From NCBI GenBank assembly GCA_964016885.1, contig OZ024752.1, positions 3,596,001 through 3,660,000 of the forward strand: 64,000 nt of DNA, in the 5' to 3' direction. The first letter of the stretch is position 1, and each line of letters begins with the position of its first letter. Made by a program: the position numbers and the translations under genes. Of the stretch, positions 1,523 through 63,500 are shown one piece after another. A model generated the notes under the pieces. It worked only from the letters and a program-made list of their open reading frames with translations, made no database searches and was not told the origin of the DNA. The stretch comes from Eledone cirrhosa (Eukaryota).

Positions 1523-1589
1523 TATTTTATCTGATGAGGACGTACTGTTGAAGTTAGCTCAGTACCTCTGAAATATGTATAATAAAATA
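1523..1589 (+). ncRNA. Minimal type I hammerhead ribozyme, intact core
   Basis: Stem I TATTTTAT(1523-30)/ATAAAATA(1582-89); CTGATGA 1531-37; stem II GGAcGTACTG/CAGTACcTCT; GAAA 1570-73; near-palindromic TATGTA; UA 1580-81. Lies in a ~290 bp island between TA tracts. Confidence 0.85.
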
Positions 1590-2603: not shown

Positions 2604-3449
2604 GTTTAATAAATATACAGAGAGCAAAAAAACAGAAACTAATGATATTAGTATTAGTTCCACGCTTGATAGTAAAAACCAAAGAAACAAAAACAATAAC
2701 AAAGAGTGCAGTACGAACAGTATTGGTATTAGATTCACGCTTGAGAGTGTATGTGTGTGTGTATGTATGGATAGTCCTGGCTTCTATTTCTAATTCTTTA
2801 TTATATATATATCATATTTGCAACAACACAGCTCGCCATTTTTCATTCATATATGCTTTCCCCTTCGCTGTGACCTGTCTTTTTCTCTTCCCATACTGCT
2901 ATCCTCTTTCTCTCTCCCCTTTCTCTCTCCTTCTCCCTCTTACTTTCACTCATCCTCTCCTCTGCTAGTCACCTTCTCGCGGCTAGCCTCTTCCTCACAC
3001 TTTCACTCACTCACTCTCTGCTACTCACCCTCGCTCTCACTTCCTCCATCGTCTCACACCGCACGAAATTCTGTCCTCGCTCACATTCGCACGGCCAAGA
3101 TGTGTCGTTTGTTTTCTCGTCTTATGTTCAAAATAAATCATTGACTTGATTTTCTCATATTTTCCTCTCTTTACGTTGCCTCACCATTCGTGTTAGTTTA
3201 CCTGTCTCTCTTTCTCCACCCAACTCTTTTTATCCCAATAACTTAATTTAGTTATTGTTCGCCCTAGCCGGAGGTATCTGGTCTGTAATGCGGAGAAATA
3301 CATATGACGGCTAGTAGACCACTGATGATGGATAGTCCTGGCTTCTATTTCTAATTGTTCATTATATATATATCACATTTGCAACAACACAGCTCGCTAT
3401 TTTTCATTTATAGCCCTCTTTGGATTTTAGTCTTCAAATTTATTATTAT

Positions 3450-3452
<3 letters not shown>
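2604..3452 (+). mobile_element. TA-flanked non-coding element with terminal direct repeat (pLTR/retrozyme-like)
   Basis: ~84 bp direct repeat ATGGATAGTCCTGGCTTCTATTTC...TTTTCATT at 2766-2850 and 3328-3411; CT-rich interior; 3' end shared with elements at 26118 and 34264; TA tracts on both sides. Confidence 0.55.
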
Positions 3453-3506
<54 letters not shown>

Positions 3507-3612
3507 TACAAATATGAATATTAATAACTGTGGAAAATTATTTTGCTGTAGAGTGCTTCCAATCTACTGTAAAACTCATTCTTTGATGTACTCATTGAAT
3601 CTTGTTTAACTC

Positions 3613-3670
<58 letters not shown>

Positions 3671-3710
3671 GATATTAAACAAATGGAAATTACATTTATA
3701 AAACCATATT

Positions 3711-3775
3711 TATTTCATTATATATATTTCAGGGATATCATATTAAAATATGGTATGCCTTCTTCAGACAAAATA
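3711..3775 (-). ncRNA. Minimal type I hammerhead ribozyme (left arm)
   Basis: Minus strand: TATTTTGT CTGAAGA AGGCATACCATATT-TT-AATATGATATCCCT GAAA TATATA TA ATGAAATA. Confidence 0.8.
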
Positions 3776-4150
3776 CAATATATAGACAGTTTTATAAATA
3801 AATTTGACATACCTTAGAGCTTACAACTTCCATTTAAAAAGTTGTTACGGTAGTGAAAATGTTAAGGACGGTTAGAAAAAAAGACGGAGAAAAAAGGAAA
3901 AAGAAAAAGAAGGAGAAAAGAAAAAGAAAAAGCGGATGGTGGTTTTCTCTTTACATACATTTCTTCATCTTCTTCACCTTCCGCTCTTTCTTTTTCTTTT
4001 CTCCTTCTTTTTCTTTTTCCTTTTTTCCTTTTTTCTCCGTTTTTTTTTTTCTAACCGTCCTTAACATTTTCACTACCGTAACAACTTTTTAAATGGAAGT
4101 TGTAAACTCTAAGGTATGTCAAATTTATTTATAAAACTGTCTATATATTG

Positions 4151-4215
4151 TATTTTCTCTGAAGAAGGCATACCATATTTTAATATGATATCCCTGAAAT
4201 ATATATAATGAAATA
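4151..4215 (+). ncRNA. Minimal type I hammerhead ribozyme (right arm)
   Basis: TATTTTCT CTGAAGA(4159-65) stem II, GAAA(4196-99) TATATA TA ATGAAATA; one stem I mismatch relative to the left-arm copy. Confidence 0.78.
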
Positions 4216-4340
4216 AATATGGTTTTATAAATGTAATTTCCATTTGTTTAATATCGTAAAATACTCCAAAACTGTTGAGTGCTTTTATATCAGTTATAAA
4301 ATATTTACTCGTTGTAACCCAACATTTTAAATAAAACTTT

Positions 4341-4404
<64 letters not shown>

Positions 4405-4639
4405 TATATGTATGTATGTATGTGTGTGTGTGTATATATATATACATATATGTGTGTGTGTATACAAAAAGAGAGCGAGTAAATATCGAAGGGAAATTGT
4501 GAAAGAAAGCTAGATGATAGAAAGATAGGATGGTCGTCACGCAGTCACGCGGCTCACACACTCACATACAAATACACACATACACACACACACATACAAA
4601 GACACACACACATACAAATACATATACACACACACATTC

Positions 4640-9781: not shown

Positions 9782-10549
9782 TCCTCTTTTTTCATCCACT
9801 ACCCTCTTCTACTTCTACGACTACCCACCACCCATTTACCCAATGTTATTCCTTTCTACCGTTCTCTCTCCCTTTATTTATTAATTTATTTATTTATTAT
9901 TATTATTTTTTTAATAGTATTGTTTCCACTTTGAAGTTCCTTTCAATTGTGTAGTAACTATTAAGTCTCTTTTGCCGGAAGTTCCATTATAGCCATTCTC
10001 AGAGCCTGCCACGCCTTTGTCGTCTTTTTAAACTAAACTACATTTCTTTACCCATCAATTACGTACTCCGATTTCTACGCAGTAGAAATTTCCACTCTAG
10101 ATTTATGTTGTTGTTGTTGTTACTGTGGAGTCTTTGTTGTTTTCTCCATATTATGTTTTCATTCTTTCGCTACTTTCGCTATTTTGTGATTTTATTTTAT
10201 GAGATATTTTTTTTTATTATAATTTACTAATTTTATTCCGCTCATTCCTTTGCTATTGATTTCCTTCTTTCATTGTCTTCTTCTTTTTCTTCCTTTCTTC
10301 GTTTCCTTCTTCTTCTTCTTCTTCTTCTTCTTCTTCTTCTTCTTCTTCTTCTTCTTCTCATCCTCCCCCTCCTCCTTCTTCTTCTTCTTCTTCTTCTTCT
10401 TCTTCTTCTTCTTCTCATCCTCCTTCTTTTTCTTCTTCTTCTTCTTCTTTTTCATTGCCCTATACTCACCCATCCATCTTTTTATCTTCCTGCATTCCCT
10501 CTCATACTCTCTCCTCTTCATTATCTTCCTTTCTTCTTTTCATCTCATC

Positions 10550-11077: not shown

Positions 11078-11300
11078 TCAACTTTGTATTTCATCCGTCA
11101 GGGGTCGATAAAATGAATTAAAGTACTGGGGCCGATGTAATCTCCCACCCCCGAAAAGTTGATTGCCTTGTGCCTGCATTGGAAAAGATCCGAGGTTAAC
11201 TTTGCCTTTCATCCTTACGGGGTCGTTAAAATAAAATACCAGTAATATATTGGGATACTTGCTGGCCTTGTGCCAAAAGTAGAAACAATTATTACTATTA
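11078..11300 (+). mobile_element. Two tandem partial SINE copies
   Basis: Core ACTTTG..TTTCATCC...GGGGTCG.TAAAAT twice; tail GCTGGCCTTGTGCCAAAAGTAGAAACAATTATTA. Confidence 0.8.
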
Positions 11301-11309
11301 GTAGTAGGA

Positions 11310-12237
11310 GTAGGAGTGCAACTGGCAGCAGAACGGGAGTGTTCCCAGTTCTGTGGACCGGGGCGTAGTGACGCTAAGGAAAGACGAGAACAAGAGGGAC
11401 ACATTAGACAATGTCAGGCCCATAACTCTGCTCAACACAGAGTTCAAGATTTTGGCCAAGGTGTTTGCGAAGAGGTTGGCGCTTGTCGTCGGGGATATGG
11501 TTGGGGAGGCGCAAACTTGCACAATCCCAACCAGGTCCATACACGACAACCTGCACCTGATGCGATACATCATAAAGAGGGTCGGGTCTAAACCTGGCTT
11601 CGGTGGAGCTCTGATCAATTTAGATCAATCGAAAGCATTCGATAGGGTCGACCATCGGGACCTGGAGGCTGTCCTCAAGGCGGCTGGCTTCCGCCCGTCT
11701 TCAGAAGCTGGATCGCTGCAATGCACAGCGGCACCTGCTCGGTGGTCAAAATTAATGGCCACCTCTCGAACCGTTTCAGGTCTCCCGATCGGTCCTCCTT
11801 TCTGTACGTATTGACTCTAGAGCCTTTACTGCGGAAGCTGTAGCTGTTGCAGGGCATCCCGCTCGAACCGGGACGCGGAAAGGCTGTGTCGGCTTATGCG
11901 GACGACATCACCGTGATGGTGTCGGACACCTCAGAAATCGAGGTGGTCGGCAACTTATTGGAGGAATATGAAAGGTTGACGGGAGCAAAACTTAACCCGG
12001 AAAAGTCGGTGGGCTTGCAACTCTGCACCTGGAGAGGCAAGTCCATGCCGTCCAACAGTGTCGTTAGGCGCTGGACGGACGGGTAAAGTTGCTCGGGGTT
12101 TGGTTCGGGCCAGACCTCCAGATGGATAAGAATTGGGACGAGCTCACGGGCAGGGTAGCCCGTCTTACCCAGAAATGGCCTGGGAGGAAGCTATCATTGA
12201 AAGGTCGGGCGGAGGTGGCGAACGCGTACATCGCGCC
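11310..12237 (+). mobile_element. Tx1/L1-clade LINE RT fragment, frameshifted
   Basis: [50 protein letters not shown] across frames; close paralogue of 29905-32250. Confidence 0.9.
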
Positions 12238-13920: not shown

Positions 13921-14414
13921 AAAGGTGAATTTAGAATATACAATTCAGAATATACAATTATTCCTCGGAGAAAAAAAAACAACAAATTAATTGGCTTGAA
14001 CTGTTTTAAAGGAGACACACTCATCACCCTAATGATGTCACTCTACCTTCTCCCCAACCATTTTTCAAGGAGACATTTTCTTCACAATAATGATACCGCC
14101 CTCCCCACAATTTTTACTTTACAAGAAACTACACTCATTATTGTTAAAATGATGACCCCTAATTTTAGTATATATGTAGATGGTTAAAATTCCATCAACT
14201 TGCCCGAGTAGGCGTTCGCTTTCCCAGTCCCACATTTTTTTTATGATATTTTATATTATTATATTTTTTTGTTTCTGTATTTTCATGCCGACTTCACCCC
14301 CTCGTTCCTTACAACAACCAGTCGTCCTACAGACGGTTCATGTTGACAAACCTCTTCACCATTATCAGGACCAGCCTCACCCCAGAACCCTAAAACAATG
14401 ATAGCTGTTAAAAT

Positions 14415-14596
14415 TAATTGTTTCTACATTTGGCACAAGGCCAGCAATTAACCCCAGTGTATTACTGGTACTTTATTTTATCGACCCCGTAAGGATGAAA
14501 GACAAAGTTAACCTCGGCGGTATTTGAACTCAGAATGGCAAGGGCCTAACTCTATGGGTCAAAGCATGGCGTCTGACCCGCTACAAATACTGCCAA
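14415..14596 (-). mobile_element. tRNA-derived SINE
   Basis: Reverse complement of core: TGGTACTTTATTTTATCGACCCCGTAAGGATGAAAGACAAAGTTAACCTCGGCGG; B box TTTGAACTC. Confidence 0.85.
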
Positions 14597-14959: not shown

Positions 14960-15988
<1,029 letters not shown>

Positions 15989-16135
15989 TATTTTCCGTTG
16001 TGTTGTAATATAAATATTACACACAGTAGATTATCAGCTCACGTAGAGTTTGCTCGACGGTTCCAGTTGTAGTTCCAAAAGTAATCCGGAGAAAAATAGA
16101 AAGATTTGAATGGATACAGTTTAGTTGAAAGGAAT

Positions 16136-16252
16136 TTATTGACACGTGTTTCTATAACAGTTACATAACCTAAAACAGCTATCTACAAACTTTTAGTTAT
16201 GCAGACATTCAATATTTCAATGTTATTATTTACTGTCATTTCATCAGAATAA
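16136..16252 (-). ncRNA. Type I hammerhead ribozyme with long branched stem II (left arm)
   Basis: Mirror of 18270-18386: TCATCAG at 16241-47, GACACGTGTTTC at 16141-52. Confidence 0.75.
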
Positions 16253-16838
16253 TATTACTGAGGAGCTATTTAGTTTTTATAGAGAATATTAGGAGGGAGG
16301 GGTGAAGTTGTTAGAAGAATAGTTGAAGGAGTGGTTTTTCGATAGCAGTGAGAATTCTTGGTGGCAGTGAGTAATTAGATTCCCATCTGTTGTTTTGACA
16401 TTTTTTATAGAATATATTATTGGTTATTTTTCTAAATCTATAGAAGGATTAGAGATAGTGAAGATATGCGTGGTTGGTTTTGTGTTTGCACTTAATTAAC
16501 ATTCAGACTTAAATTTTTCTTTCAAGTGTACGTATCCTTTCACCCACGCATTCACACACAAATATATTTGCACACCTCTACAAAATACATATACACACAA
16601 TTCACATATTCATACTTACATATATATACACATGCATACACATATATATACACACATGTATTCATGTACATACATACGCGCTCATGTGTATACATTTTCA
16701 TACTCAACTTATCTTTATATACACACGTATAGACACACACATATATACATACATACTCTAGTCCATGTGTACACACATACACATACATACACATCCATAT
16801 ACACATATATACATACACATATATACATACATATATAC

Positions 16839-16877
<39 letters not shown>

Positions 16878-17643
16878 CATACATACACAAACATACATAT
16901 ACACATATATACATATATATACATATATAAGCACTTTAATACATGAATACACTTACATCTAACTATACACATCAAACATATATATATATTTACTTATTTA
17001 TATACATTTTCACATATATATACATACTTATGGACGTTTTTAGACACATTCATTATCGCATATTTGTACCTCTTCTCATCAGCATATCTTTTCATTATTA
17101 GTATGGTAATTTAAGGTTATTAATATATGTTGAGAAGAGATTGTTTTTATATTTTTCTAACTAGATTAAGGTTTATATAGTTGGGGGATGTCCCTCTTTT
17201 ATGTAATATTCGGCTTGTAGTGGGAAAAAAGGGTTTTAGTTCTGTGACGGCAGAACGAACATTATTCTGCCGTCACAGAACTAAAACCCTTTTTTCCCAC
17301 TACAAGCCGAATATTACATAAAAGAGGGACATCCCCCAACTATATAAACCTTAATCTAGTTAGAAAAATATAAAAACAATCTCTTCTCAACATATATTAA
17401 TAACCTTAAATTACCATACTAATAATGAAAAGATATGCTGATGAGAAGAGGTACAAATATGCGATAATGAATGTGTCTAAAAACGTCCATAAGTATGTAT
17501 ATATATGTGAAAATGTATATAAATAAGTAAATATATATATATGTTTGATGTGTATAGTTAGATGTAAGTGTATTCATGTATTAAAGTGCTTATATATATA
17601 TATATATGTATATGTGTGTATATGTATGTTTGTGTATGTATGC

Positions 17644-17683
<40 letters not shown>

Positions 17684-18269
17684 GTATATATGTATGTATA
17701 TATGTGTATGTATATATGTGTATATGGATGTGTATGTATGTGTATGTGTGTACACATGGACTAGAGTATGTATGTATATATGTGTGTGTCTATACGTGTG
17801 TATATAAAGATAAGTTGAGTATGAAAATGTATACACATGAGCGCGTATGTATGTACATGAATACATGTGTGTATATATATGTGTATGCATGTGTATATAT
17901 ATGTAAGTATGAATATGTGAATTGTGTGTATATGTATTTTGTAGAGGTGTGCAAATATATTTGTGTGTGAATGCGTGGGTGAAAGGATACGTACACTTGA
18001 AAGAAAAATTTAAGCCTGAATGTTAATTAAGTGCAAACACAAAACCAACCACGCATATCTTCACTATCTCTAATCCTTCTATAGATTTAGAAAAATAATC
18101 AATAATATATTCTATAAAAAATGTCAAAACAACAGATGGGAATCTAATTACTCACTGCCACCAAGAATTCTCACTGCTATCGAAAAACCACTCCTTCAAC
18201 TATTCTTCTAACAACTTCACCCCTCCCTCCTAATATTCTCTATAAAAACTAAATAGGTCCTCAGTAATA

Positions 18270-18386
18270 TTATTCTGATGAAATGACAGTAAATAATAAC
18301 ATTGAAATATTGAATGTCTGCATAACTAAAAGTTTGTAGATAGCTGTTTTAGGTTATGTAACTGTTATAGAAACACGTGTCAATAA
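18270..18386 (+). ncRNA. Type I hammerhead ribozyme with long branched stem II (right arm)
   Basis: TTATT CTGATGA(18275-81) aATGACAGT...ACTGTTATa GAAA(18370-73) CACGTG TC AATAA; GUC triplet, palindromic stem III, 88 nt stem II. Confidence 0.75.
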
Positions 18387-18417
18387 ATTCCTTTCAACTA
18401 AACTGTATCCATTCAAA

Positions 18418-19383
<966 letters not shown>

Positions 19384-20924
19384 CAGCAGTAGGTCCCGAT
19401 AGGTTCCCTGCTTGTGTCTTGAAGGCGTGTCAACACCAACTTGCTTCTCCTCTTGCCAATCTGTGGCGGAACTCACTGGATGCTGGATATGTGCCAGAAA
19501 ACCTTCTATCCCAGTCTGTTGTCCCAGTTTTCAAAAAGGGAAACAAATCCCTTGCCGTGAATTACCGTCCAATCTCACTCACCTCTCATATCATTAAGGT
19601 ATTTGAGCGAGTGGTGAGATCGCGAATGACCCACTTCCTTGAGAGTAACAATATGCTGAACTCCAACCAGCATGGATTCCGTAATGGAAGGGATTGCCTG
19701 ACGCAACTACTGCATCACTTTGATGACATTTTGAGAGCCTTGGGAGAGGGTTCCAACACTGATGTTATCTACCTTGATTTCAGCAAGGCCTTTGACAGGG
19801 TTGATCATAACATTCTACTGAGAAAGCTGTCCAATATTGGTGTCACTGGAAAGCTGCTGCAGTGGATCAAGAGCTTCCTGTCAAACAGAACCCAACATGT
19901 TGTAGTTGAGGGAGTCAAATCAAGCCCAGCCAAAGTCAGTAGTGGAGTCCCACAAGGCACTGTGTTGGGCCCACTTCTCTTCATCATCTATATTAATGAC
20001 ATCACTGACATCATCAAACACAGCAACATTAAAATTTTCGCTGATGATTCCAAGCTCCAAAAGGTCATCAATGGCGTGGATGACCGGATAAGCCTTCAGT
20101 CAGACCTATTGGCTGTTACCCAATGGGCAGAAAAGAACAACATGTTACTGAACGAAGACAAATTCGAACTGATCCACTTTGGAAAAGAGGATGCTCTGAA
20201 ACTCCCGTACTCCCTTCCCTCCGGGGAAACTCTCGTGGCATCTAACAACATCAGAGACTTGGGAGTAACCGTGGACAGCAACATAAGCTGGACCACGCAT
20301 ATAAGCAGCAAAGTTGACATGGCCCGCAGAATGTGTTCCTGGATCCTCAGAACCTTCCAGTCGAGAGATTCCCGCACCATTATCCTTCTCTTCTCTACTT
20401 TCGCCCGACCACACCTTGAATACTGTTGTCCACTGTGGTCTCCCCACACGAAACAAAGTATCATGAAACTTGAAGCTCCTCAAAGGGCAATCACGAAAAA
20501 GATAGATGGCATGTCAGACCTTGACTACTGGGGTCGATTGGAAAACCTGAAACTTTACTCACTCCAACGTCGCCGTGAGCGTTATATTATCTGCATGATG
20601 TGGAAAATGTTCCATCATCACTGCCCAAATGATGTTGGCATCGCCTTCAAGATACACCCAAGGCTTGGGCCCCGTGCTATCCGTCCCATTCAAAAATCTA
20701 AATCGCAACTCATAACAACAATACGGCACAATTATTTCACCTCAATCGGCCCTGCTCTCTTCAACATCACACCAGGACACGTCAAAACAGAAACTGACCA
20801 CACAAAATTCAAGAAGTCTTTGGACAAATTCCTCCAAGTAATCCCGGACAAACCACCCACACCCGGATATGTCTCCGCAAACAGTAATTCTCTTCTCGAA
20901 TGGGCCATGGTGCCCAAATCCTGA
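19384..20924 (+). CDS. Non-LTR reverse transcriptase (ORF2 C-terminal ~510 aa, no endonuclease, no true start)
   Basis: [77 protein letters not shown]; no stops or frameshifts. Confidence 0.92.
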
Positions 20925-29371: not shown

Positions 29372-29569
29372 TAATATAGAAATGGCTTCTAAAGGACTAG
29401 AACTGTTTCAGCCGGGAGAAATCAACAGGGCTTCCTGATGATTTCGCCCGAATGTAACAGTTCTAGTTCGGTAGAAGCCTTTCTATATTAAACATTTATA
29501 CTCTATTTTGTATTCAGTACCTTACTTACTGTGGTTACCCCCGATTGAACCCGGGATAAACTTATAATT

Positions 29570-29663: not shown

Positions 29664-29689
29664 AGTAACGAAAAATAAAATAATAATAA

Positions 29690-29884
29690 TAATAATTGTT
29701 TCTACTTTAGACCACCAGTTTGAAGGGGAGGGGAAAGTCGATTAAATCGACCCCAGCGCATGACTGGTGCTTTATTTAACGACCTCGGCAATGTTAACCT
29801 CGGTGGGATTTGAACTCAGACCGTAAAAAGCCGTAACGCTATGCTGCAAAGCATGGTGTCCGACGCTCTACCGAAACTGCCAAT
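29690..29884 (-). mobile_element. tRNA-derived SINE, near full length
   Basis: TTTGAACTC B box, ACTGCCAATCC head, AATAATTGTTTCTAC tail. Confidence 0.8.
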
Positions 29885-29904
29885 CCCCAACTCAATAATA
29901 ATAA

Positions 29905-32250
29905 AACTGATGATGATTTCATTTATTGACCACAAGGGCCGACATTTAAGGGACAATACAAAGACACGGACAGTGGCAATTGACAATACGCTCGAGTAAA
30001 AGTACACAGTAGCAAAACCAATTTAACAATGAAAATATAAAATAAACTATGTATAAACATAACAAAATAAATTCCCTAGGGGCGACTTAGGTACCGACCA
30101 ATCCTGAACGACCTGACGCCTTGAGGGCACTCCTCTCCTCCTCAAATTAACCAGCTCACAGGCACATGGTCAGAGTAGGCCCAATCACACGGGCCATTGT
30201 CGCCACATTCATCCGCCTTTTAAAAAATGTACTGGGGGTAGGGGTAAACTTCTCTCTCCACCGTCACCTTCCTTTCCAGGTGAAACTTGAAGAAGTTGAT
30301 GAGGGATTGACCGAAGAGAAACGTTTCTGTCTTCAGTCCTTTCAACCTGATCCACCTTATAACCTCTTTCGCAACTGCCAAGATACAGAAGAATATTACC
30401 TGCCCTTCCTGGCCAAAAGAAGGCGGCGGGACGATCTTCACTATGGATCCGTTCTACATGCGACGACAGCTGTTCGACATAACTCCACAAGTCAGTAATC
30501 CATGGACATTGGACGAGTACGTGGAGACTGTTTCGTCGTTCTGCGCGCATCTCGGGCAGGTCCGTCTGACACTACTTCCGTACTTGTAGAGTTTATCATG
30601 AACCGGCAGTGCCCCCATTAGCACTGTCAAGCGTGGGATTTCTGGAAGTTATCCGTCGTACCGGCTCGAATCTCCTCCGGAACAGACTGCTCATTCGACT
30701 TAGTCGACGCCCAGAGCCTCTCTGAGTGCTTCGTCGCACTCGCCTTCCAATAATCCTCTATAGAACTCGAGAGTAGAAGTCGCACTGACCGCATTGCCCG
30801 CTTGATAGAGGGCAGTGAGTGTCTGGCAACATTCAAGATGACAGTCACCCAGTCTCGGTCTCTTCTTGACCTAGGACTGCAGCTCAGTCAAAGAGAAGAG
30901 CTGCGGAAAGGCTCGGCTGACAAACGTCGACCACATCTGTTCAGGCAGAATATTTGGAGATGCCGCAGCCTCAGCGCATGTCTGCACCTATCGCGTGGAG
31001 AGTGCTGGCAGCAGATGGATCGCCTCACCAACGGAACCTGTCCCCTCCGCAATAATTTGAAAAGGAGCCGTTCCAATTTGGTGAGACGCAATCGGGGGCA
31101 AGGGACGACATTCAGGCGGTAGTAGATGACGGACGCGATGTACGCATTCTCCACGTCCGCCCCTTTTCAGTGATAGCTTCCTGGCAGCCTATTTCTGAGT
31201 AAGATTGGCTCCCCTGCTCGTTACCTCGTCCCAATTCTTATCCACCTGGAGGTCGGGTCCGAACCAAATTCCGAGCAACTTAAATCGTCCGTCTGTCCAG
31301 CGTCCAACGATGCTGTTGGATGGCATCGACTTGCCTCTCCAGGTGCCGAGCTGCAAGCCTATCGACTTTTCCCGGTTAAGATTCGCTCTCGTCAACCTTT
31401 CATATTCCTCCAATAAAGTGCAGACCACCTCGATTTCCGAGGTGTCTGACATCATCACGATGATATCGTCCGTATAAGCCGACAGAGCCTTTCCGCTTCC
31501 CGTTTCGATCAGGATATCCTGCAACATGCAACAGCTCCAGCTTCTGCAGTAAAGGCTCGAGAGTCAATACGTACAGAAGGGAAGAGCCAGCGCACCCTTG
31601 ACTCACCGATGGGGGGACCTGAAACAGTTCCGAGAGGTGGATATTAACTATGACCACCGAGCAAATGCCGCTGTTCATTGCAGCGATCCAGCTTCTGAAG
31701 ACGGGACCGAAGCTAGCTCCCTTGAGGACAGCCCGTATGTACCGATGGTCGACCCTATCGAATGCTTTCGATTTATCTAAATTGATCAGTGTCCCAGCGA
31801 AGCCAGGTTTACACCCTATCCTCTCTATGATGTATCGCTTGAGGTGGAGGTTGTCATGTATTGACCTGGTTGGGATTGCGCAAGTTTGCGCCTCCTCAAC
31901 CAAATCCTCGACGACAAGCGCCAACCTCTTTGCTAACACCTTGGCCAAAATCTTAAGCTTTGTGTTAAGAAGACTTATGGGCCTGAAGTTGTCTAATGTA
32001 TCCCTCTTGTTCTCGTCTTCCCTTATCAGCGTCACCACTCTCCTGCTCACAGAATTGGGAATACTCCTGTTCTGCTGCCAGTCGCAGTAGAGAACAAGTC
32101 TGACATATTTACGTAAAGCTCGTAGGGCAGACCATCTAAACAAGGGCATCCTGAATTTCGGCTGAAGTAATCGGCCTTTCAAATCGCTCAGCTTCGGCTG
32201 TCGAGAGGCGCGGCAAGCTGTCGAAGTAGGGACTGAAGTCCGCTACACTT
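29905..32250 (-). mobile_element. Tx1/L1-clade LINE, 5'-truncated and decayed, with 3' end
   Basis: [42 protein letters not shown]-terminal CPRC...HVLVQCP; minus-strand AATAAA at ~29921-26 followed by short ATC repeats. Confidence 0.9.
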
Positions 32251-32252
32251 TC

Positions 32253-33357
32253 TACCATCTCACTTGGAGCTTACTGTCCAGAGCCAACTCTTACACGGGA
32301 GGACGCCGTCCGTGTAACTTATGCTCGGAGGAAACATTACAAATGCTGTTTACGAAGGATCAACTCCTAAACAAAAAAGACGAACTGGTCACTGCATGCA
32401 AACACAGATTGCAGAAGACTTACTTCACCCTCAAACCCCCTAACGATCCGGGTGGGTAGACTAGCACTGAAACACCCCACTTACCGAATAAGATAGGGAG
32501 AACCCCTACTTAAATAGGTAGATGCACCTCTTTCCTTTTCCTCTATGTTTTCTCCTTCCTTTTGTCTCCTATCACTTCCTTCCACCACCGAATTACTTCC
32601 TCGTTCATTTCTTTGTGTTTTTTCCTCCTTCACCTACCCAGGGGCAGCCCATCGGACCTCTTTAGCCTCAGTACCCCCACCCCAGTAACTTACAGATAGC
32701 ATTCGCCGATTACGCTATACTAACTATTCATAGCAGCTGTGTTAGACCCCAGAGATGTGGTATTAATTTTCAATTCTAAATTTTCAATAATTCTCATCTA
32801 GCAACTCATTCTATAGCATTGGCCGAAATAGCAGCACCAACTAAATATAGCAGCTGTGTTAGACTCCTTAGTTTTATTTCACATCTAACTTTCCAATTTT
32901 ACATTCTGATACATCTTTCTCTCATTTTGTTATTATATTCTCTTTTGTTATATGTTTTCATTGCCCCCTAATCGCATTTGATTTACTATTTCTATAACGT
33001 CTCTCCTCTACTTTCTAAAGAAACCTTTTTTCGCCAACCTCCTCTGGCATACTTTCATACATATTCCTTAGAATTTGCAGTGTAGATTTCACCTTCTACA
33101 CTTGACCGGCTCTACCCAATCCCCTATCGTTCTACATGCAATTTCAGCCATCCCCACCCAGCACCCACTTCCATGATAGATTTTTCTGTGTCTGCTACAC
33201 ATTTTGATCAATCCTCTTGACAACTACAATCTTCCCATATAAGGAAGTCCCCCTTGAAATGTTCGGCTATTTATTTACCAGACTACAAAAACCCTTACTT
33301 TAGTCCAAAAATAGCCGTCGAAACGGCTTGAGCTGTGCCGTCGGGGTCATACTTTCT

Positions 33358-36532: not shown

Positions 36533-37426
36533 CTGAAAGATTGCAACTGTAAATCAAGTGGTGCACCTTGCCACACATGCTGTCCGGATGACCCCTCCGA
36601 GAATTATGTTGAAGGCACACATGTGTGTGGAATGCTTAGGTGATAAGTTCGTTACTTACACAAGCAGGTTCATACGTTGGTCAAAAATCAGAACATCTAT
36701 CGTATAAACCATTAGTGACCCATTCATAGGCATCAGAGAGACTATCACACTACGATGGCCGACAAGGTTTCGTTTTTCTATCTTTAACCACAGAAAAATA
36801 AACCTATGGAATTTGTTGGCTCATGAAACATTCTTTAATATACATCATCGCTCTGATCATTCGATACGGTACCAAACCTCATTCGCTTGCCGAGTGGGGT
36901 GGACCTCATCAATTCGGACCAAAGAAACAATGTTTTCATTGGGCTTTCCATTGCTGATACTATCTACCGGTTGCAACTAGAAAGGGCAACGTAAAATAAA
37001 GTGTTTTGCTCAAGGACACAACGCATCACACGGTCCGATAATTGAACTCACGACCTCATTATTGCAAATCCAACTCACTACGCCATCACTAATAGATTCT
37101 TCTTTTCTTTCTTTTAATTTAGTTAGTAATCGTTATGATTTGAGAATTTCGTTATAGAGGGGGTGGGTGACAACACGATTCTAGAAAGAAAAAATGTTTA
37201 AAGAGAATAAATAATTAACTCTATATTTTTGTAATTTGATGAAATAAGAAACATTATACCATAAGAAACGGCCAAAACTGACATATTGATTTCGAAATTG
37301 TGAGACAAGCTGAATTAAGTAACAGCAACGTATGCTACACGTTCTCAGTTAAAAAATACACCGAGGTTAACTTTGACATTCATTCTTCTGAAAATATAAT
37401 ACCAGTCATTATTGTCAACTATAATT

Positions 37427-37630
37427 GCGGTGGGTTAACAGTATCGTTAGAACACCAGACAACATGCTTTATGGCAAAAGGTTACGGCATTTTACGATCT
37501 GAGTTCAAATCCTGCCGAGGTGTGTTTGTCTTTCATCCTTTCGGGGTTGATAATATAAAGTACCAGTAATGCACTGGCTTCTACTTTCCCCTCCCCTAAA
37601 ATTGCTGGCCTTTTGTCTAAAGTATTACTT
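37427..37630 (+). mobile_element. tRNA-derived SINE
   Basis: GAGTTCAAATCC B box, TTTCATCCTTTCGGGGTTGATAA..AAAGTACCAG core. Confidence 0.8.
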
Positions 37631-40899: not shown

Positions 40900-41330
40900 A
40901 CACATACGTCTCTAATTTAGGAACGCCGATAAACTCATGCGCGCGCACATACACACACTGTCCTATTACCACTTAAGAACTTTGGTCCGAGCAAACATCC
41001 CCTCAATTTTGGGACCGTCTGGGTTGTCCAGAATTGATGGAAAAATACTAGACGGTCTTACTCTAAGCGCTTGGTCAAGAGGCAGGTGCCTTATCTGGGA
41101 CATCGCACTTAGTAACTGTTTGGCTCCTTCCCAAATCCTGAATGCAGCGATAAGGGCGAGAGCTACAGCATCTGCAGCTAAACGGAGCAAAATCCTAAAA
41201 TACTGTGTTCTGTCAGTTAACTACATTCTCCAGCCTGTGGTGTTCGAGATGTTTGGTGGGAGTCGGGCAACTGACAGCGGGGTTCTTATTTTCACTGGCG
41301 GCTCGGCAAACAGAGGTAACTTTTACTGAG
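40900..41330 (+). mobile_element. CRE-clade LINE restriction-like endonuclease domain remnant
   Basis: PSGLSRIDGKILDGLTLSAWSRGRCLIWD...KILKY...PVVFEMFG matches EPxGLxRxDGKRPDGxT...WD. Confidence 0.75.
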
Positions 41331-41369
41331 TTATGACTTAGGATAGACGTAGCTACCAACCTCACTAGC

Positions 41370-42546
41370 GTATATTACTTAGACATAAATTTAGACATTC
41401 GCACATACACCTTCCATAAACTAAATGAAAAACTTAATTACATACACAAGGACACATGCCATCCTCCTACTGTTTTTAGAAACTTCGTAAATAATATCGG
41501 TACTAGAATCTCTAACGTCTCCTCTAATAAAGCAATATTTGAGAGAGTGGTACCCTACTACAATGCGGCGTTAACTAACATCAGCTTCTCGCAACCAATT
41601 ACTTACCACCCCACTAACACCAACAGCAATAAGAAAAGAAATCGTGCTAATAGGAAAACTATCTGGTTCTCTCCCATCTCTCCTCACTCACCGATAAAAC
41701 TAATGTAGGCAAAAGATGTTTAGCTGTCTCAGATAGACACTTTCCCATAGGTCACAAATACCGCTCCATCTTTAACAGATGCAGGGTGAAACTAGGATAC
41801 TCCTGCGCTAAGAATATGAAGGCCCACATCACCAACAGTCCTAAGAGCAGCACCACACCGGGATGCTCTTGCCGAAAGCCTGACGATTGTCCCATTCAAC
41901 AACAAATGTAACACATCCGCTGTCATTTACGAAGCTGTGCTCACATCCAACCGACCAAATCAACAACAAGAGGTTAAATCCTATGTAGGTATGACGGAGG
42001 GCCGGTTTAAGGAACGCTTCCTGATCCATCAGTAGACCTTTAGATACTCGGACAAACGATCGTCCACGAAAATCCGGAGCCACATATGGTCCCTCAAAGA
42101 CTCAGGCGTAGACTGTTCCATCCAATAGAAAGCTATCACTAAGTCCAAGCCATACGCAAAAGGAAATCCCTCCTGGGGACTGTGCATTGAAGAAAAGATC
42201 AATATCCTAAAAATTTTACGCAATTACGATTACCTAAATTCAAGAAATGAGCTTTTGTCACGTTCTCCACAGGTCTGGTAACACCTCTTGCATAACTACA
42301 AAGCTCCAGATTGAATAACTTCAACATTCTAATATTCTGATCAACTCGAACAATTTATTCCGGACAATCGCAATTATCTCCCATACATCATTCGACCGTG
42401 GGTTTCATCACCTAGGAGAAGTGACCGTGTCTGCGCATGCGTATTCATACGGTTATTTTTCCTTTTCCACTCAGACCAAGGTGAAGATCCGCTTAAGGTA
42501 AAACATTTGTTTACGGTATGGTGAACTAACTGTTGTGGAACTACTT
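41370..42546 (+). mobile_element. Penelope-like element remnant: RT C-terminus, linker, GIY-YIG endonuclease, 3' UTR
   Basis: YLDINLD..YIHKDTCHPP..RISNVSS..YNAAL; RKTIWF; DRHFP..IFNRCRVKLGYSC; CSCRKPDDCP; VIYEA..SYVGMTEGRFKERF; HIWSLK; LCIEEK; YLNSRNEL; stop 42312-14; several stops and frameshifts; ends in (TA)n. Confidence 0.88.
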
Positions 42547-42665: not shown

Positions 42666-42671
<6 letters not shown>

Positions 42672-43069
42672 TTGGTAAACGGAATAGAAAATGCTGACAA
42701 ATTGTTCACAGTTGAAAAATGGTTTAATTAGGAATAAAAGAGTATTAGTGATTGTATGGGTTAGTATTCAGTTGTGGTTTTAAGTTTTTAAGTTTTTACC
42801 GGTTGCGCATTTCTAAATGCTTTTCAAAAATAATTTTGAGATAGAGTGTCCGTGCTGTTTGCTCTGATCAGAGCAAACAGCACGGACACTCTATCTCAAA
42901 ATTATTTTTGAAAAGCATTTAGAAATGCGCAACCGGTAAAAACTTAAAAACTTAAAACCACAACTGAATACTAACCCATACAATCACTAATACTCTTTTA
43001 TTCCTAATTAAACCATTTTTCAACTGTGAACAATTTGTCAGCATTTTCTATTCCGTTTACCAATATATA
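42666..43069. mobile_element. Perfect spacerless 404 bp palindrome with decayed hammerhead-like motif in each arm
   Basis: Centre CTCTGA|TCAGAG at 42867/42868; no arm mismatch seen; TTT TTGAAAA GCATTT-AG-AAATGC GCAA CCGG TA AAAA at 42905-42942 and mirror 42793-42830; extension 43070-43102. Confidence 0.9.
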
Positions 43070-43098
43070 ATAACTTGTGTGTTACACCTCTATTCTTT

Positions 43099-43154
<56 letters not shown>

Positions 43155-44108: not shown

Positions 44109-44111
<3 letters not shown>

Positions 44112-45075
44112 CTTAAACAACAGAATATAGAGCACTCCTTATCCTGGTCTATAATTTGCTCAGCCCAGCCATATAATGGCAGCTCTGGCGTTTGTAATTT
44201 GTGTATAGCTGAAACCTTTAATATTATTAGAGGCGGCCCCCTATTAATCAATAGGAGAGCGGACCTTTTCAGCAACTGCCAACATAGAACCCTGAAAACC
44301 CTCCGTAGGATTTTTGGAAAGTAACCTACCACTAACTCCTCCCTCTCTAACTTAGCCATAGAGTTCTCTCAATTAGCAAAAAAAAAAAAACAGACAATCA
44401 CATACTCAGGTAGTTAGACAGCGAAGATCGTTTGCGCACTTACAAACGGTACTCGGCGTGTTTCCACGAAGTTCTCACAGCTGAGTGCACATTAGAATAT
44501 CTAGTTAGTAAATAGTTAGAAAGATTACACACTCAGGTAAGACCGATTACGCGCATTCACCATTACTTTAGGATACCTTCACCACTGAATTCTCTCGGTT
44601 AGGATATAGCTAGGCGTATTACACACTCAGATAAGACTAATTATGCTATCTAAACATAACTCTAAACACAATACCCGGTTTCTTTAGACACTGAGTTCCC
44701 ACAGTTATTACTGGTCACGTTCCTATCGATTGAACACTACACAGACTAACTTCTTTCTTTCTAGATCATCGGCACACCACTCTCTTACTTCAAACTTCTC
44801 ATAATGTACTTGTCCACAACTCACGGGCTTCAACACCTTTTTTTATCCCTCTTAATCTCACCCTGATGAAAAATAAGAGCTCAAAACAATAGTCTCTTCA
44901 TACCCTATAGTAACCGAACAGATTCAACTCGCTGTGAACTCGACTTTGTAGTAATTTTTGCTGACTCAAACCATCGCTTGTTTCTTCTGATACCAGATTT
45001 TGTCGTATAACATTTTACAGGCATATTCTCTAAATTTATGACTCATTGCAATTTCTCTCTAGGTAAATAAATTGC
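44109..45075 (+). mobile_element. Penelope-like 3' remnant (GIY-YIG C-terminus + UTR)
   Basis: KLKQQNIEHSLSWSIICSAQPYNGSSGVCNLCIAETFNII...LINRRADLFSNCQHRTLKTL; UTR has repeated ACACTCAG(G)TA; 3' boundary approximate. Confidence 0.8.
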
Positions 45076-47728: not shown

Positions 47729-47954
47729 AGCATTGCCTAAATCTATATAGCAATGTGCATAATAATTCGAACTGTGAGGCTTCTACTAGTTCACTCAACT
47801 AGCTAGAAATAGCAACAAAATAGTCATAGCATATGAGATAAAAAGAAGAAACATTCAAAAATACAATCTTTGTTTCACATGATCTCGTAAATTATGGCTG
47901 GAATATTGTTTCTCGCGCCTACTTTATCACGTCCGACGTCTGGGTAACCAACAG

Positions 47955-48085
47955 CTGAGTTCAAATCCCGCCGATGTTAGCTTTGCCTTTCATCCTTGGG
48001 GGCTTGATAAAATAAAGTACCAGTAATTCACTTGGGTTGATTTAATAGACTTTCCCCAAACATTGCTGGCTTTCTTCCTAAAGAT
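47955..48085 (+). mobile_element. SINE partial copy
   Basis: GAGTTCAAATCCCGCCGATGTTAGCTTTGCCTTTCATCC. Confidence 0.8.
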
Positions 48086-48134
48086 GAAACAATATTTACA
48101 AGATTTCACCAATCTTTGGCATCCCAAACAAAGA

Positions 48135-48300
48135 CATCCCAAATGAAGTCCCACCGTATAAAACAAAGACATCCGAATGAAGTCCCACCGTATAAAAGAA
48201 AGACATCCGAATGAAGTCCCACCGTATAAAACAAAGACATCCCAAATGAAGTCCCACCGTATAAAACAAAGACATCCCAAATGAAGTCCCACCGTATAAA
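48135..48300. repeat. Minisatellite, 5 x 34-35 bp
   Basis: CATCC(C/G)AATGAAGTCCCACCGTATAAAACAAAGA at 48135, 48170, 48204, 48238, 48273; no spacers. Confidence 0.95.
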
Positions 48301-48739
48301 TTCAGTAATGTCATACCGGAATCATTTAAACATAGATCAGCTCGAAACATGCTGACCTGGAGGTAAATAGCAATGGACACAACCATAATAAGGAAAGAAT
48401 TTCGATCATGTTTCTATATACAATAAGACTAAAGTGTGTATTAATTATTTTTCTATTCCTCAGAAAGAAGTGAGATGAAATATGGAATATATTCATTCTT
48501 TTCTGGATAAGAAGGGTTGAGTTCTGGGCTTGGGATTTGAGACACAGGTGGAGTGATCACAAGTAGACCTATATGGAGAGAGCATTCTGATAGCTAGTTC
48601 AGAGCAGATGTTGTAATATTAGTGTTGGAAGAGGAAGAGAAAAGAGCCCATCAGGTTGTCTGGGAGCTAGTTGTTTAAGTGTGTTGCTGAGTGTATATTT
48701 GTTATGAAGTCGAATGGGTATTAACTAAAGTGCCACAAA

Positions 48740-49315
48740 AATTGCTGGCCTTGTCTCAAATTATTAATATTATCATCATTATTAATCTTAACCTCGAGTT
48801 CAAATTCCGCCGAGGTTAAGCTTCACCTTTCATCCTTACGGGGTCAATAAAATAAAGTACCTGTAACACATTGGGGCTGATTTAATCGAATTTTCCTCCC
48901 CTCCAAAATCAGTGGGCTTGTGCCTAAATCAGAATGATTATTAAGGGCGGTGGATTGGCAGTAACAGTACAGCGTCAGGCACCATGTTTTGCAGCATAGA
49001 ATTATGGCCCTTTACGTTCTGAGTTTAAATCCCGGGAAGGTTAACTTTGTCTTTCATCCTTACGGGGTCGATAAAGTAAAGCACCAGTAATGTCCTGGGG
49101 TCGATTTAATCGACTTTCCCCTCCCCCCAATATTGCGGGTCCCTCAATATGCTTAGCAGCATGGAGTTACGGCGCTTTATGGCCTGGGCTCCAAACCCAC
49201 CGAGGTTAACTTTACTTTTCATCCTTACGGGGTCGATAAAATAAAGTACCAGTAATGCACTGGGATAATTGCTGGCCTTGTGCCAAAAGTAGAAACAATT
49301 ATTATTAGTAGTAGT
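48740..49315 (+). mobile_element. Head-to-tail cluster of 3-4 SINE copies
   Basis: Cores at ~48812, ~49038, ~49202; head GGCGGTGGATTGGCAG at 48946. Confidence 0.85.
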
Positions 49316-50999
49316 ATTCGTTGTAGTTGTTATTGTTGTAGTTAAGTAGAGATAAGACGCTAGCGGACGATTATCCACGTGCATAAATATGTAAAGAGAC
49401 ACATGAACAGATATAACTGAGTATATCTATGTTGATAAGTTATGACAACTATTCTGTTGTGGTAAGTAACCATTTAATCTTTCGTTAATATATATATGTA
49501 TGGGGGGGGGGTATGTTTGGGTGGTGTGTGTGAGTACATTCTTGATATTAAACATATTTTTAGTTTTGAAAATATTTTCCACTATGTTGCAGTTAACTGG
49601 AGGCTATGTACAGTAAAACAATATATATTCAATAGTGTCTTTGATTATAAATTGATTAAACTACATAAAAATATAATGAAATCAAAGAAAACAAAAAACT
49701 CATTCCCTGAAAATATCAGCAAATAAACGAATAAAACATATTGAAAACCTTCAAAAGAAGTCAATTTCTACCACTTATTGGCTTTACACTTCAGAAGAAA
49801 GGGCTAGACAAGTAGCGTTGAAGTGAAGCTGGAAATAGCTCTTCACCATTACTGACGTCGACAAATGGAACCAGCTCTTCAAGTACTAAAAGAAGAAAGT
49901 TTTTCACAGACACACATATATGTGTGTGTATGTATTGCGTGTATGTGTAAGGTATGTGTACGTGTGTGTATGTATTCATTTATTGTTATCGTTTTTTAGC
50001 ATTTCCTCTATATTTTCTTCTTTTCTTAACCAGCACACAATCACTCAATTGTTATTCAAGAGGATTTCAGATGAATAGAATCAGATTCACTCTAAAATAT
50101 TTTAAAGGACTTATGCTATCTGCCTGGAAGACATTTGTTGCAAAGTATTCAATATTTCAATACTTTATTAAATCCGAAGAGTTTTATCATTAAGACTCTT
50201 GTTTAGTTTGATATTGTGCGTATTTTCATTGACCTTGCCTCATGTATTTTTTGCGTTATTTTGTTTTAGTATTATTAACTGTAATGTTTAATGACAGTTC
50301 CACTATCCTGAAGTTTTAGTCGACTCCATAGAGAGCTAACAACAAACCAGTAATTTCTAATTATACCACTGGGTTAATTACCCTCTTTATCTAAACAGGA
50401 AAATAATGATTTTTAAACATTTACTTAATTCATTACTTTCAGTTTAATAAACGAAATAAATATTGAGTGATTTTCAATTAAATCATTCTCTCTCTCTCTC
50501 TCTCTGATATTAAAGCAGATGGGTAGCCTAGATAGATGTATGATTAAAATAATCAATTTCTCGGTCCTTTCCAATTGTAAATACATATAATGAGAAAGAG
50601 GCGAAAGTTTGTATATATGTATAAACTAATATTTTTGTTGTACTCAATAATGGTGAACTATCGACATATGTGAGTATATCATAATGATTTATTTAAAGTT
50701 ATGATGACTTTATCGTTGCTATTTAACTCAATCCCACTTGTGATCAAGCTCGTCTATATTCAAATAAATTCCAATTGGAACCATCTTTTATTTGTTTCTG
50801 ACATAATATAGCTATGTATACTTTAGCCAAATAACCTTTACTTTTAAAGTCATTAGAATATAATTTAAGGCTGTTGTTTCTAGGTGGTCGACCAATCACA
50901 TACAGACTTCCAGTTTTCCGCGATATGTAGTAATATATTATTTAATTTACAACTTTTGAGTAAATTTGTATATATATGTGGTTTTGTTCCCCATAAAAA

Positions 51000-57103: not shown

Positions 57104-57602
57104 TGGTAGTAGTAGTAGTAGTTTTTGTTGTAGCATCAGCAGCAACTGTATTATTAGTAGTATTAGTTATAATAGACTTTGTAATAAAAATATCTTTGAA
57201 TAATAAATACTACCTAGATGCTTAGTCGCAGAGTAGTAGTAATAATAGTAGTGGTAGTAGTAGTAGCAGCAACAATAGTAGTAGTTGTTGTTTTTGCCCC
57301 AGATAAAACCTAATAAAGGAAATCTATGTTCACAGGACTTTAATCTATGACCAACTATGTAAATTTCAGACACAGGATTATATAGTTCTGCATGCATCAT
57401 ATGCCGTTCCTTTTCAAATATGGCGTTCCTTTTCAAATATGACTGATTTAATGGAGATTTGAGAAGACCAGATCAAAGGGCTTTCATTCATGACCATCCC
57501 ACTTTTTTCTGTGTAAGGGGAATTATATTCTTCGATGTGTATTTCCTATTTTACTATGACATGCATGTTTTATTTGAAATAGTTCTCTCCTATTATTATC
57601 AT

Positions 57603-57700
57603 TGACTTTGCCTTTCATCCTTACGGGGTCGATAACATAAAGTACCAGTAATGCACTGGGTAATTGCTGGCCTTGTGCCAATAGTAGAAACAATTATTAT
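57603..57700 (+). mobile_element. SINE 3' half
   Basis: ACTTTGCCTTTCATCCTTACGGGGTCGATAAC...GTAGAAACAATTATTA. Confidence 0.85.
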
Positions 57701-58062
57701 CATGTCTAAAGAATCGCTCAATATCTCATCTGATCACTAATTCAAACATCATTATTTCGAACCATTAATACAGCGTTATTTTAAGGGCTGTCTCTAGTTA
57801 TTTCACTTAGTCTATTTATGTCAGCCAGTCTTATTACACAAACACGCTGCACACACACGCTACACACACACACACAAACACCACACCACACATACACGCA
57901 CACACACGCACACGCACACACACGCACACACACACACACACACACGCACACACGCACGCACACACGCACACACACACACACACACACGCACACACGCACA
58001 CACGCACACACACGCACACACACGCACACACGCACGCACGCACGCACACACACCCACACACA

Positions 58063-59524: not shown

Positions 59525-59527
<3 letters not shown>

Positions 59528-59703
59528 TTTTTATTTTATAGAAGGAGCTTCTACAGGACTAGTACTGTTTCGTTCAGATTTCATCTGAACGAAACAGTAC
59601 TAGTCCTGTAGAAGCTCCTTCTATAAAATAAAAAAAATTTTACTCTGCCATGTATTGAGTACCTTACTTACTGTGGTTATCCCCGACTCAACCCGGGACC
59701 TAC

Positions 59704-59704
<1 letters not shown>
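59525..59704. mobile_element. Perfect 113 bp fold-back (3 nt loop) of a half hammerhead plus extension
   Basis: 59525-59579 / 59583-59637; arm reads GAAA CAGTACTAGTCCTG TA GAAGC; homologous to 29372-29570. Confidence 0.85.
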
Positions 59705-59760
<56 letters not shown>

Positions 59761-60574: not shown

Positions 60575-60698
<124 letters not shown>

Positions 60699-60789
60699 GT
60701 AATTCCGTCGGAAAGTACCAGGAAAAAAGAGTGCTCTATGTAGGTTACAGAGCTTAATAGTTATGTAATAAACAACATAAGATAATTAA

Positions 60790-60848
60790 TTCATTTACCA
60801 GTGGTTTCTTGAAAGCAAACAAAATTTGCTTTCAGTCATCAGAATGAA
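60790..60848 (-). ncRNA. Minimal type I hammerhead ribozyme, intact core
   Basis: TTCATT CTGATGA cTGAAAGCAAA-TTTTG-TTTGCTTTCAa GAAA CCACTGG TA AATGAA. Confidence 0.85.
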
Positions 60849-61154
60849 GAAATCCTGGTGTATTTATTGGCGTTGGATTTTAAAAACAAAAATATAATCT
60901 ATATGAAAGTGAGGCTGGGAAAGGAAGAAGGAAAGGAGAAAGATTAAGTATAAAAGTAGATAAACACACACGCGCACACACATATACATACACACATATA
61001 TATACATATACATATATATATATACACACATATATATATACATATACATACACATATATATACACGTACAAATACATATACATATATGCACACATATATA
61101 TCCACATATCCATACATACACATACACACAAATACACAAACACACACACACATG

Positions 61155-62498: not shown

Positions 62499-62710
62499 TG
62501 AAAAACATGACATTAAGGAGTCACATGACTCTTTTTAGCCTCTTACTATATATTTATATATATATATATATAATATATATAGAGTATATGTGTAAATGAA
62601 GTAATTCCGTCGGAAAAGTCCAGGAAAAAATAGTGCTCTATGTAGATCACAGAGCTTAATAGTTATTCTAAAAACCTTTAATCCAATATTAATAAATACA
62701 CCAGGATTTT

Positions 62711-62768
62711 TTCATTCTGCTGATTGAAAGCAACATTTTTGGTTTTTAAGAAACCACTGGTAAATGGA
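62711..62768 (+). ncRNA. Decayed paralogue of the 60790 hammerhead
   Basis: TTCATT CTGCTGA TTGAAAGCAAC...GGTTTTTAA GAAA CCACTGG TA AATGGA. Confidence 0.7.
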
Positions 62769-62798
62769 ATAATTGCCTTATGTTGTTTATTACATAAC

Positions 62799-62843
<45 letters not shown>

Positions 62844-62954: not shown

Positions 62955-63142
62955 CCGGTGGATTGGCAGTATCGGTGAAGGGTCAGACGCCATGTTTTCC
63001 ACCAAGAATTAGGTCCGTTTACAGTCTGAGTTCAAATCCCGCCGAGGTTAACTTTGCCTTTCATCCTTACGGGGTCGATAAAATAAAGTACCAGTAATGC
63101 ACTGGGTATTTGCTGGCTTGTGCTAAAGTAGAAACAATTATT
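62955..63142 (+). mobile_element. tRNA-derived SINE, near full length
   Basis: CCGGTGGATTGGCAG head, GAGTTCAAATCC B box, core, tail. Confidence 0.88.

Positions 63143-63465: not shown

Positions 63466-63500
<35 letters not shown>

Follow-up and report, generated by a model that had tools for sequence, protein, structure and literature searches.

The window analysed, a stretch of 64,000 nucleotides (64 kb) of Eledone cirrhosa DNA, is AT-rich, of animal type and contains many microsatellites; its repeats have a cephalopod-like look. Self-comparison of the whole window revealed an inverted repeat of 591 bases at 3668–4258, which bears out the hairpin locus of ~590 bp reported in the preliminary description; the end coordinate given there, 4343, includes an 85-base extension that is present on the right-arm side only and has no mirror on the left. 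In the gapped alignment of the two arms (3668–3941 versus 3975–4258), the 274 columns include 5 substitutions plus 10 gap bases, the longest stretches without a difference measure 101, 62 and 50 bp, and a spacer of 33 bases separates the arms. The arm differences are simple mismatches, none of them compensatory, and 2 of the 5 substitutions fall within the innermost 12 pairs. The locus is flanked by (TA)n on both sides, and a target-site duplication is not readable inside the TA run. The features are as follows (PLE, Penelope-like element).

3618–3669, no strand: (TA)n run adjoining the left arm, the likely insertion target
3668–3941, minus strand: left arm, a tailless copy of the 3' end of the element, inverted and 5'-truncated
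3711–3775, minus strand: putative type I hammerhead motif of the left arm (core 3767–3761, helix II 3760–3731, GAAA 3730–3727, palindromic helix III 3727–3720, predicted cut after A3719)
3942–3974, plus strand: unpaired spacer, pyrimidine-rich on the plus strand, probably a further 5' reach of the right-hand copy
3975–4258, plus strand: right arm, a 5'-truncated copy of the element's 3' end
4151–4215, plus strand: putative type I hammerhead motif of the right arm (core 4159–4165, helix II 4166–4195, GAAA 4196–4199, helix III 4199–4206, predicted cut after A4207)
4259–4343, plus strand: one-sided 85-base extension (the PLE 'tail'); some reads exit into (TA)n at 4258 and others continue
4345–4396, no strand: (TA)n run past the tail

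The focal unit consists of an inverted 5'-truncated copy joined head-to-head at the 5' end, its sense being set by the hammerhead. Frame and protein comparisons revealed no coding remnant in this unit, and self-comparison revealed no direct repeat of it within the 64-kb window.

Both arms carry the series CUGAAGA / 30-base helix II / GAAA / AUAUAUAU / A17, in which AUAUAUAU represents the palindromic helix III. The two motifs face outward, with cores starting at 3767 (minus strand) and 4159 (plus strand), 392 bases apart and each 51 bases inside its arm end. The core elements CUGANGA, GAAA and NUH are present in both arms, and the cut triplet is AUA. Helix II opens with an A-U pair followed by two G-C pairs and contains a CxC and a CxA mismatch in both arms. 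Helix I is formed by 8/8 pairs on the left, two of them G-U, and by 7/8 pairs on the right, the exception being a CxU mismatch at 4157, the second pair from the cut site. Thus, of the two outward-facing intact hammerheads claimed previously, the orientation and the core bases stand, whereas intactness beyond the core does not, given the helix II mismatches, the right helix I mismatch and the lack of a hammerhead match to Rfam at gathering score anywhere in the window. At E ≤ 10, Rfam returned 75 matches in 3400–4500, none of them a hammerhead and all below the gathering score; these matches, mostly to microRNA models on the low-complexity stem, were rejected as composition effects.

A strict type I descriptor found three sites in the window (the two arms and 1531) and a relaxed descriptor found eight; with either, 100 local shuffles gave 0.02 sites on average and never more than 1, a lenient control because both descriptors were written after the motifs had been seen. 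A covariance model was also built from 17 hammerheads in PLE loci of other organisms; in its alignment, 97% of the cells are paired and 10/12 pairs show changes on both sides, partly by construction, as the rows were picked with the descriptor. Among the 17 matches of this model in the window, the focal arms rank 8th and 12th (E 0.24 and 2.6), and the top sites are 60788–60850 (E 4e-7), 62709–62770 (E 7e-4) and 1523–1589 (E 0.011). Judged by their sequence, the predicted focal hammerheads are recognisable but divergent motifs.

As a positive control, we used 78 PLE loci from other organisms, fetched via relatives of a coding remnant at 41.3 kb in the window (see below). The relaxed descriptor identified 47 motifs in 38 of the 78 loci; all but one (46 of 47) lie on the sense strand, and most are no more than a few hundred bases away from an end of the reading frame. 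In this set, 39/46 motifs cut after A and 7/46 open helix II with G-C; the departures of the putative focal motif from the textbook form, namely, the cut after A and the opening of helix II, are common in control PLE motifs. Position 15.2 is U in the focal motifs, giving a U-A pair at 15.2-16.2, versus C in 44/46 control motifs. An inverted repeat of at least 30 bases is present in 12/78 control loci, and in the one locus examined (L025) a truncated PLE frame lies between inverted ends that are 93.5% alike and both contain a hammerhead core facing outward. The focal unit had no nucleotide match to the 78 control loci at E ≤ 0.01, four hammerhead units of the window showed no similarity to control PLE loci or proteins, and a search with the family-specific hammerhead pattern returned no locus from metagenome contigs and none from viral contigs. 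None of these three sets of sequences yielded the parent element.

Besides the focal unit, the window contains three sibling palindromes and a solo copy of the same type of hammerhead.

15985–18426, no strand: sibling insertion of another family; arms 16096–17255 and 17265–18426 differ by 7 substitutions over 1160 columns and enclose a spacer of 9 bases; a tail of 111 bases occurs on the left alone, and (TA)n flanks the unit at either end; hammerhead motifs at 16247 (minus) and 18275 (plus) face outward and have a GUC site and a helix III that is a perfect palindrome
42671–43103, no strand: sibling palindrome; 197-base identical arms (42671–43064, 394 bases), no spacer, ~39 extra bases on the right, (TA)n on both sides
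59525–59705, no strand: sibling mini-palindrome; 55-base identical arms (59525–59637), 3-base spacer, ~68 extra bases on the right, (TA)n on both sides
1523–1589, plus strand: solo hammerhead of the same type as the focal ones; GAAA, helix III and helix I near-identical, helix II different

The same layout is shared by 4 of the 6 candidate units measured: one arm lies at most 7 bases from (TA)n, and the other arm is followed by 39–111 extra bases and then by (TA)n. One of the six, 62598–62801, gave no clean arm alignment. The sequences of the three siblings, all within 64 kb, are unrelated to that of the focal unit. The idea that the focal palindrome is a special hairpin locus is not upheld by these data: its layout matches the standard shape of a Penelope-like insertion, with three more in the same window.

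The unit at 15985–18426 is a larger, cleaner example than the focal one, a 2.3-kb near-perfect palindrome with arms 99% alike and microsatellites within the arms; helix II of its hammerheads contains an 88-base insert carrying its own hairpin. No hammerhead motif was found by descriptor in 42671–43103, and this palindrome therefore possibly comes from a ribozyme-free PLE clade. The centre of 59525–59705 seems to cut through a hammerhead, so that each arm keeps an apparent 3' half only (GAAAC...GUC); its right side matches 29440–29556 at 78%, where the model indicates a fuller motif (29427–29481, E 0.03).

Several other sites in the window should also be mentioned. Two copies of a further hammerhead family, with the best model scores in the window, are located at 60696–60900 (minus strand) and 62598–62801; in the latter, a reversed tail directly precedes a short plus-strand copy, forming a minimal inverted unit, and the core has one changed base. 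Nested inverted repeats occupy 63347–63899 (outer arms 63347–63467 and 63777–63899, inner palindrome 63542–63765), with decayed, inward-facing hammerhead-like matches in the outer arms (E about 1). Two further type I descriptor sites lie on the plus strand at 2277 and 21788, the second with a 10-base palindromic helix III, between TA runs and with short inverted repeats nearby. A splice-donor-like motif (AGGTATGT / GGGTATGT) is found 25–45 bases upstream of the core in the focal arm (4110–4120) and in the 1531 copy (~1500–1510); introns near the ribozyme are known in PLE terminal repeats. Downstream of the hammerhead, the 8-base word GTTGTAAC occurs in the focal tail (4311–4318) and in the otherwise divergent 1531 copy (1680–1687), and it could be a marker of a conserved tail element.

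PLE coding sequence is represented in the window by a decayed remnant at 41316–42310. A HMMER search with the frame at 41337–41705 revealed 1,278 relatives, whereas a word-based protein search with the same frame found nothing. The relatives carry reverse-transcriptase, cysteine-linker and GIY-YIG-like motifs; the RWK, DKT and CxCX5C protein motifs occur in them and not in the focal unit, and fit the description of the Hydra clade in passages of PMC8557442. No Pfam family was recognised in the 10 long relatives scanned. The remnant appears to extend over 41316–42545, with an RT thumb, a cysteine linker and a GIY-YIG-like domain of Hydra-clade-like character, and to end at a TA run; two shorter endonuclease-end fragments are located at 44109–44285 and 32259–32405. 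No sequence link between the remnant at 41316–42310 and the focal unit was found.

The Pfam scan of 149 of the 300 filtered frames returned only three RVT_1 matches, at 11.3–12.1 kb and 31.2–31.6 kb, and recognised no host exon or gene in these frames. Remnants of non-LTR retrotransposon reverse transcriptases are located at 11314–12235, 19400–20924 (with a long, open frame ending at 20924) and 31134–32242; 11317–12235 and 31134–32086 are 84% alike and lie in opposite orientation. A short SINE-like dispersed repeat is present in many copies (770–930, 11190–11306, 14407–14596, 29686–29911, 37420–37622, 47951–49316, 57602–57711 and 62956–63155).

What would a transcript of the focal palindrome look like? 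The predicted fold of the full-length transcript reaches −414 kcal/mol for the plus strand and −426 kcal/mol for the minus strand, with the ribozyme bases paired to the opposite arm at a probability of 0.98. The geometry proposed in the preliminary description, in which a transcript from either strand buries the sense ribozyme in the stem, is thus borne out by fold prediction. For the right motif, a transcript start at 3668 gives helix II a predicted probability of 0.0, and a start at 3760 or later raises it to about 0.75–0.99. The active monomer fold takes a predicted ensemble share of 8e-5 (left) and 4e-6 (right), and helix III would contribute a gain of −3.2 kcal/mol only between two molecules, that is, in a dimer. 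There may be little cleavage for the hairpin to silence: in parts of PMC4209133, monomers of such ribozymes showed no activity in vitro and dimers showed weak activity. The hairpin predicted to trap the ribozyme in a transcript is most likely a by-product without a selected role.

This brings us to the possibility that the host keeps the palindrome as a selected hairpin-RNA locus, whose double-stranded RNA silences the PLE family via small RNAs or ADAR editing and whose antisense arm switches the ribozyme off. The predicted hairpin is indeed very stable and includes uninterrupted stretches of 101, 62 and 50 bp, and precedents come from other animals: according to passages of PMC5625713, ADAR acts readily on self-palindromic repeats and Penelope repeats undergo heavy editing in a lizard, and part of PMC3846280 reports antisense small RNAs from PLEs in a rotifer. 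We nevertheless consider such a locus very unlikely, since three like units of unrelated sequence within 64 kb point to a routine insertion product, the arm differences are simple mismatches rather than compensatory changes and no host exon or gene was recognised among the 149 of 300 filtered frames scanned with Pfam. Literature linking Penelope palindromes to hairpin siRNAs was not found by title or abstract, which does not imply its absence from print.

Sequencing reads provided a view of the family to which the focal unit belongs. Four of the 23 listed runs were used; runs X1–X4 may not be independent of the assembly, and runs X5–X20 (shares of 0.13 or less) were left out as evidence, X5 having given only 4 contigs. 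In X1, the summed contig depth rises from 4,120 (4038–4078) through 73,960 (4120–4160) to 1,234,100 (4202–4242), values that are depths and not copy numbers, and single contigs nearby have a depth of 5–20. The family depth is ~300-fold lower near the centre than at the ribozyme, a gradient expected from many 5'-truncated copies. This is a very high-copy, 3'-biased, dispersed family, represented by numerous variant contigs, in which most copies have the 3' end only. In X21, a RAD-seq run that may cover few loci, 6,006 reads exit into (TA)n at 4258 and ~9,800–10,100 continue into the tail; two end types therefore exist in the family.

The reads also bear on the origin of the arms. Letters that are rare in the family and common to both arms occur at five mirrored pairs of positions (4233/3693, 4236/3690, 4078/3848, 4079/3847 and 4081/3845). 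At 4233, the other letter accounts for 785,332 of 810,227 in X1 depth, and at its mirror 3693 for 325,291 of 336,833; the corresponding values are 752,949 of 798,802 at 4236 and 314,773 of 336,798 at 3690. Because these rare letters are common to both arms, they point to a single template for both. Position 4188 (the helix II CxA mismatch) and A4203 had been regarded as private mutations and were dropped as such, the other letter amounting to ~30% and ~36% in X1 and to >90% in X21.

A further question is whether the second arm could have been created by assembly, or by a long read folding back on itself and doubling one hammerhead-bearing repeat. The centre is spanned by no read or contig (it was skipped as a repeat in read mapping), the best runs contain less than half of the sampled words and the region is full of microsatellites. 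Even so, we regard such an artefact as extremely improbable: the arms differ at 5 positions and by 10 gap bases, a 33-base spacer lies at the junction, unique sequence resumes on both sides and the duplication ends at 4258, exactly where many family reads stop. The earlier argument that the arm differences oppose a read artefact holds, and the one-sided tail strengthens it. An equally remote prospect is that a fold-back DNA transposon or MITE, or else an inverted duplication that arose locally at a later time, by chance took in a hammerhead repeat: no hammerhead was found in the sibling palindrome at 42671–43103, and MITEs typically have long inverted arms at their termini and lie in TA-rich targets, but a ~300-fold drop in family depth from the ribozyme to the centre is unlike a unit moving whole, a one-sided tail has no place in a MITE and the arm stops exactly at one of the end points of the family.

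The focal locus consists of head-to-head copies of one hammerhead repeat end in (TA)n, and we conclude, with a probability of roughly 0.9, that it represents a single, dead, 5'-truncated insertion of a PLE or of a non-coding family moved by PLE enzymes. The feature is real and of ordinary origin, with no sign of function, and its kind is already known as a published signature of PLE insertion. The assignment to PLEs is made because the inverted 5'-truncated copy, the one-sided tail, the TA target and the near-end hammerhead match that signature. Passages of Craig et al. 2021 (PMC8557442) describe PLE insertions in which an inverted 5'-truncated copy adjoins the 5' end, the pseudo-LTR contains hammerheads, a tail of 30–40 bases often marks just one of the two ends and (TA)n is favoured as the target. 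The points against this reading are the weak model scores of the two arms (E 0.24 and 2.6), the U at position 15.2 and the tail of 85 bases versus the 30–40 quoted.

The focal locus can be compared with four known systems. Like the insertions of EN+ PLEs (Penelope/Poseidon, Neptune, Nematis and Hydra), it combines a head-to-head inverted copy, a one-sided tail, a near-3' hammerhead, a (TA)n target and strong 5' truncation; unlike them, it has no coding sequence, hence no clade name can be given, and its tail is longer. PLEs are reported in part of PMC13282606 to have been recently active in Octopus vulgaris. The metazoan PLE type I hammerheads described in sections of Cervera and de la Pena 2014 (PMC4209133) are minimal motifs with a palindromic helix III, showed no monomer cleavage and low dimer cleavage in vitro and form opposite-strand pairs 100–700 bp apart in Schistosoma mansoni. 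The focal motifs share with them the full core, a short palindromic helix III suited to dimers, a long helix II and the arrangement in opposite-strand pairs, and differ in a helix II that opens with A-U and has two mismatches, in the U-A pair at 15.2-16.2 and in being ribozymes predicted from sequence.

Animal non-LTR retrozymes, as far as passages of bioRxiv 10.64898/2026.07.22.740005 describe them (see also PMC7229834), are likewise non-coding and high-copy, carry a type I hammerhead and are thought to be mobilised by PLE enzymes. Their units are arranged head-to-tail with the ribozymes on one strand, whereas the focal copies are head-to-head with one ribozyme per strand. The preprint defines retrozymes by same-strand tandem units, and the candidacy of the focal locus as a non-LTR retrozyme was rejected, since its copies are inverted where at least two head-to-tail units on the same strand would be expected. 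Because of the head-to-head arrangement with one ribozyme per strand, the locus cannot release unit-length RNA. Finally, the self-palindromic repeats edited by ADAR, such as frog Harbinger, and the edited Penelope of a lizard (Porath et al. 2017, parts of PMC5625713) resemble the focal locus in that a single insertion would fold on itself into long double-stranded RNA; editing is known there, whereas the focal locus is known from its DNA.

How might such an insertion have formed? A PLE protein, comprising a reverse transcriptase and a GIY-YIG endonuclease, would have nicked the TA run, and reverse transcription would have proceeded from the tail end of the element (4343), stopping after ~400 bases. 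The mirror arm would have arisen in the same event and from the same template. The likeliest route is that the nascent DNA folded back close to the spacer and served as its own template up to the second end point of the family at 4258; alternatively, a second priming could have taken place from the other nicked strand at an inner start site. Head-to-head junctions are interpreted as self-priming in part of Arkhipova et al. 2013 (PMC3846280), and priming from a stem that was itself imperfect would fit the position of 2 of the 5 substitutions among the innermost 12 pairs. In passages of Frangieh et al. 2024 (PMC11167929), a PLE protein cuts both strands of AT-rich DNA and both are extended, two reverse-transcription start sites bound the tail, and insertion takes place without the need for ribozyme cleavage. 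A few later mutations, including the helix I mismatch of the right ribozyme, would have followed.

The PLE insertion reading also accounts for the orientation of the ribozymes: the hammerheads face outward because the 3' end of every copy does. If they act at all in the RNA of the parent element, they would do so as dimers formed between tandem repeats; the focal hammerheads cannot pair in one transcript because they lie on opposite strands.

The density of PLE stubs, four in 64 kb, admits a wider proposal, namely, that they are a major supply of near-perfect double-stranded RNA in host transcripts, like the inverted Alu pairs of primates, and that the mirror arm disarms the hammerhead, so that palindromic copies can persist in genes from which selection removes solo copies of the ribozyme; we hold this to be improbable. 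Taken singly, the focal locus matters little, as one more example of a PLE landing. Its young arms, defined spacer and two family end points do record how the inverted copy and the tail form, a process called unresolved in part of PMC8557442. If many such stubs are transcribed, they could feed editing or silencing with large amounts of double-stranded RNA, for which passages of PMC5625713 provide precedents in other animals.
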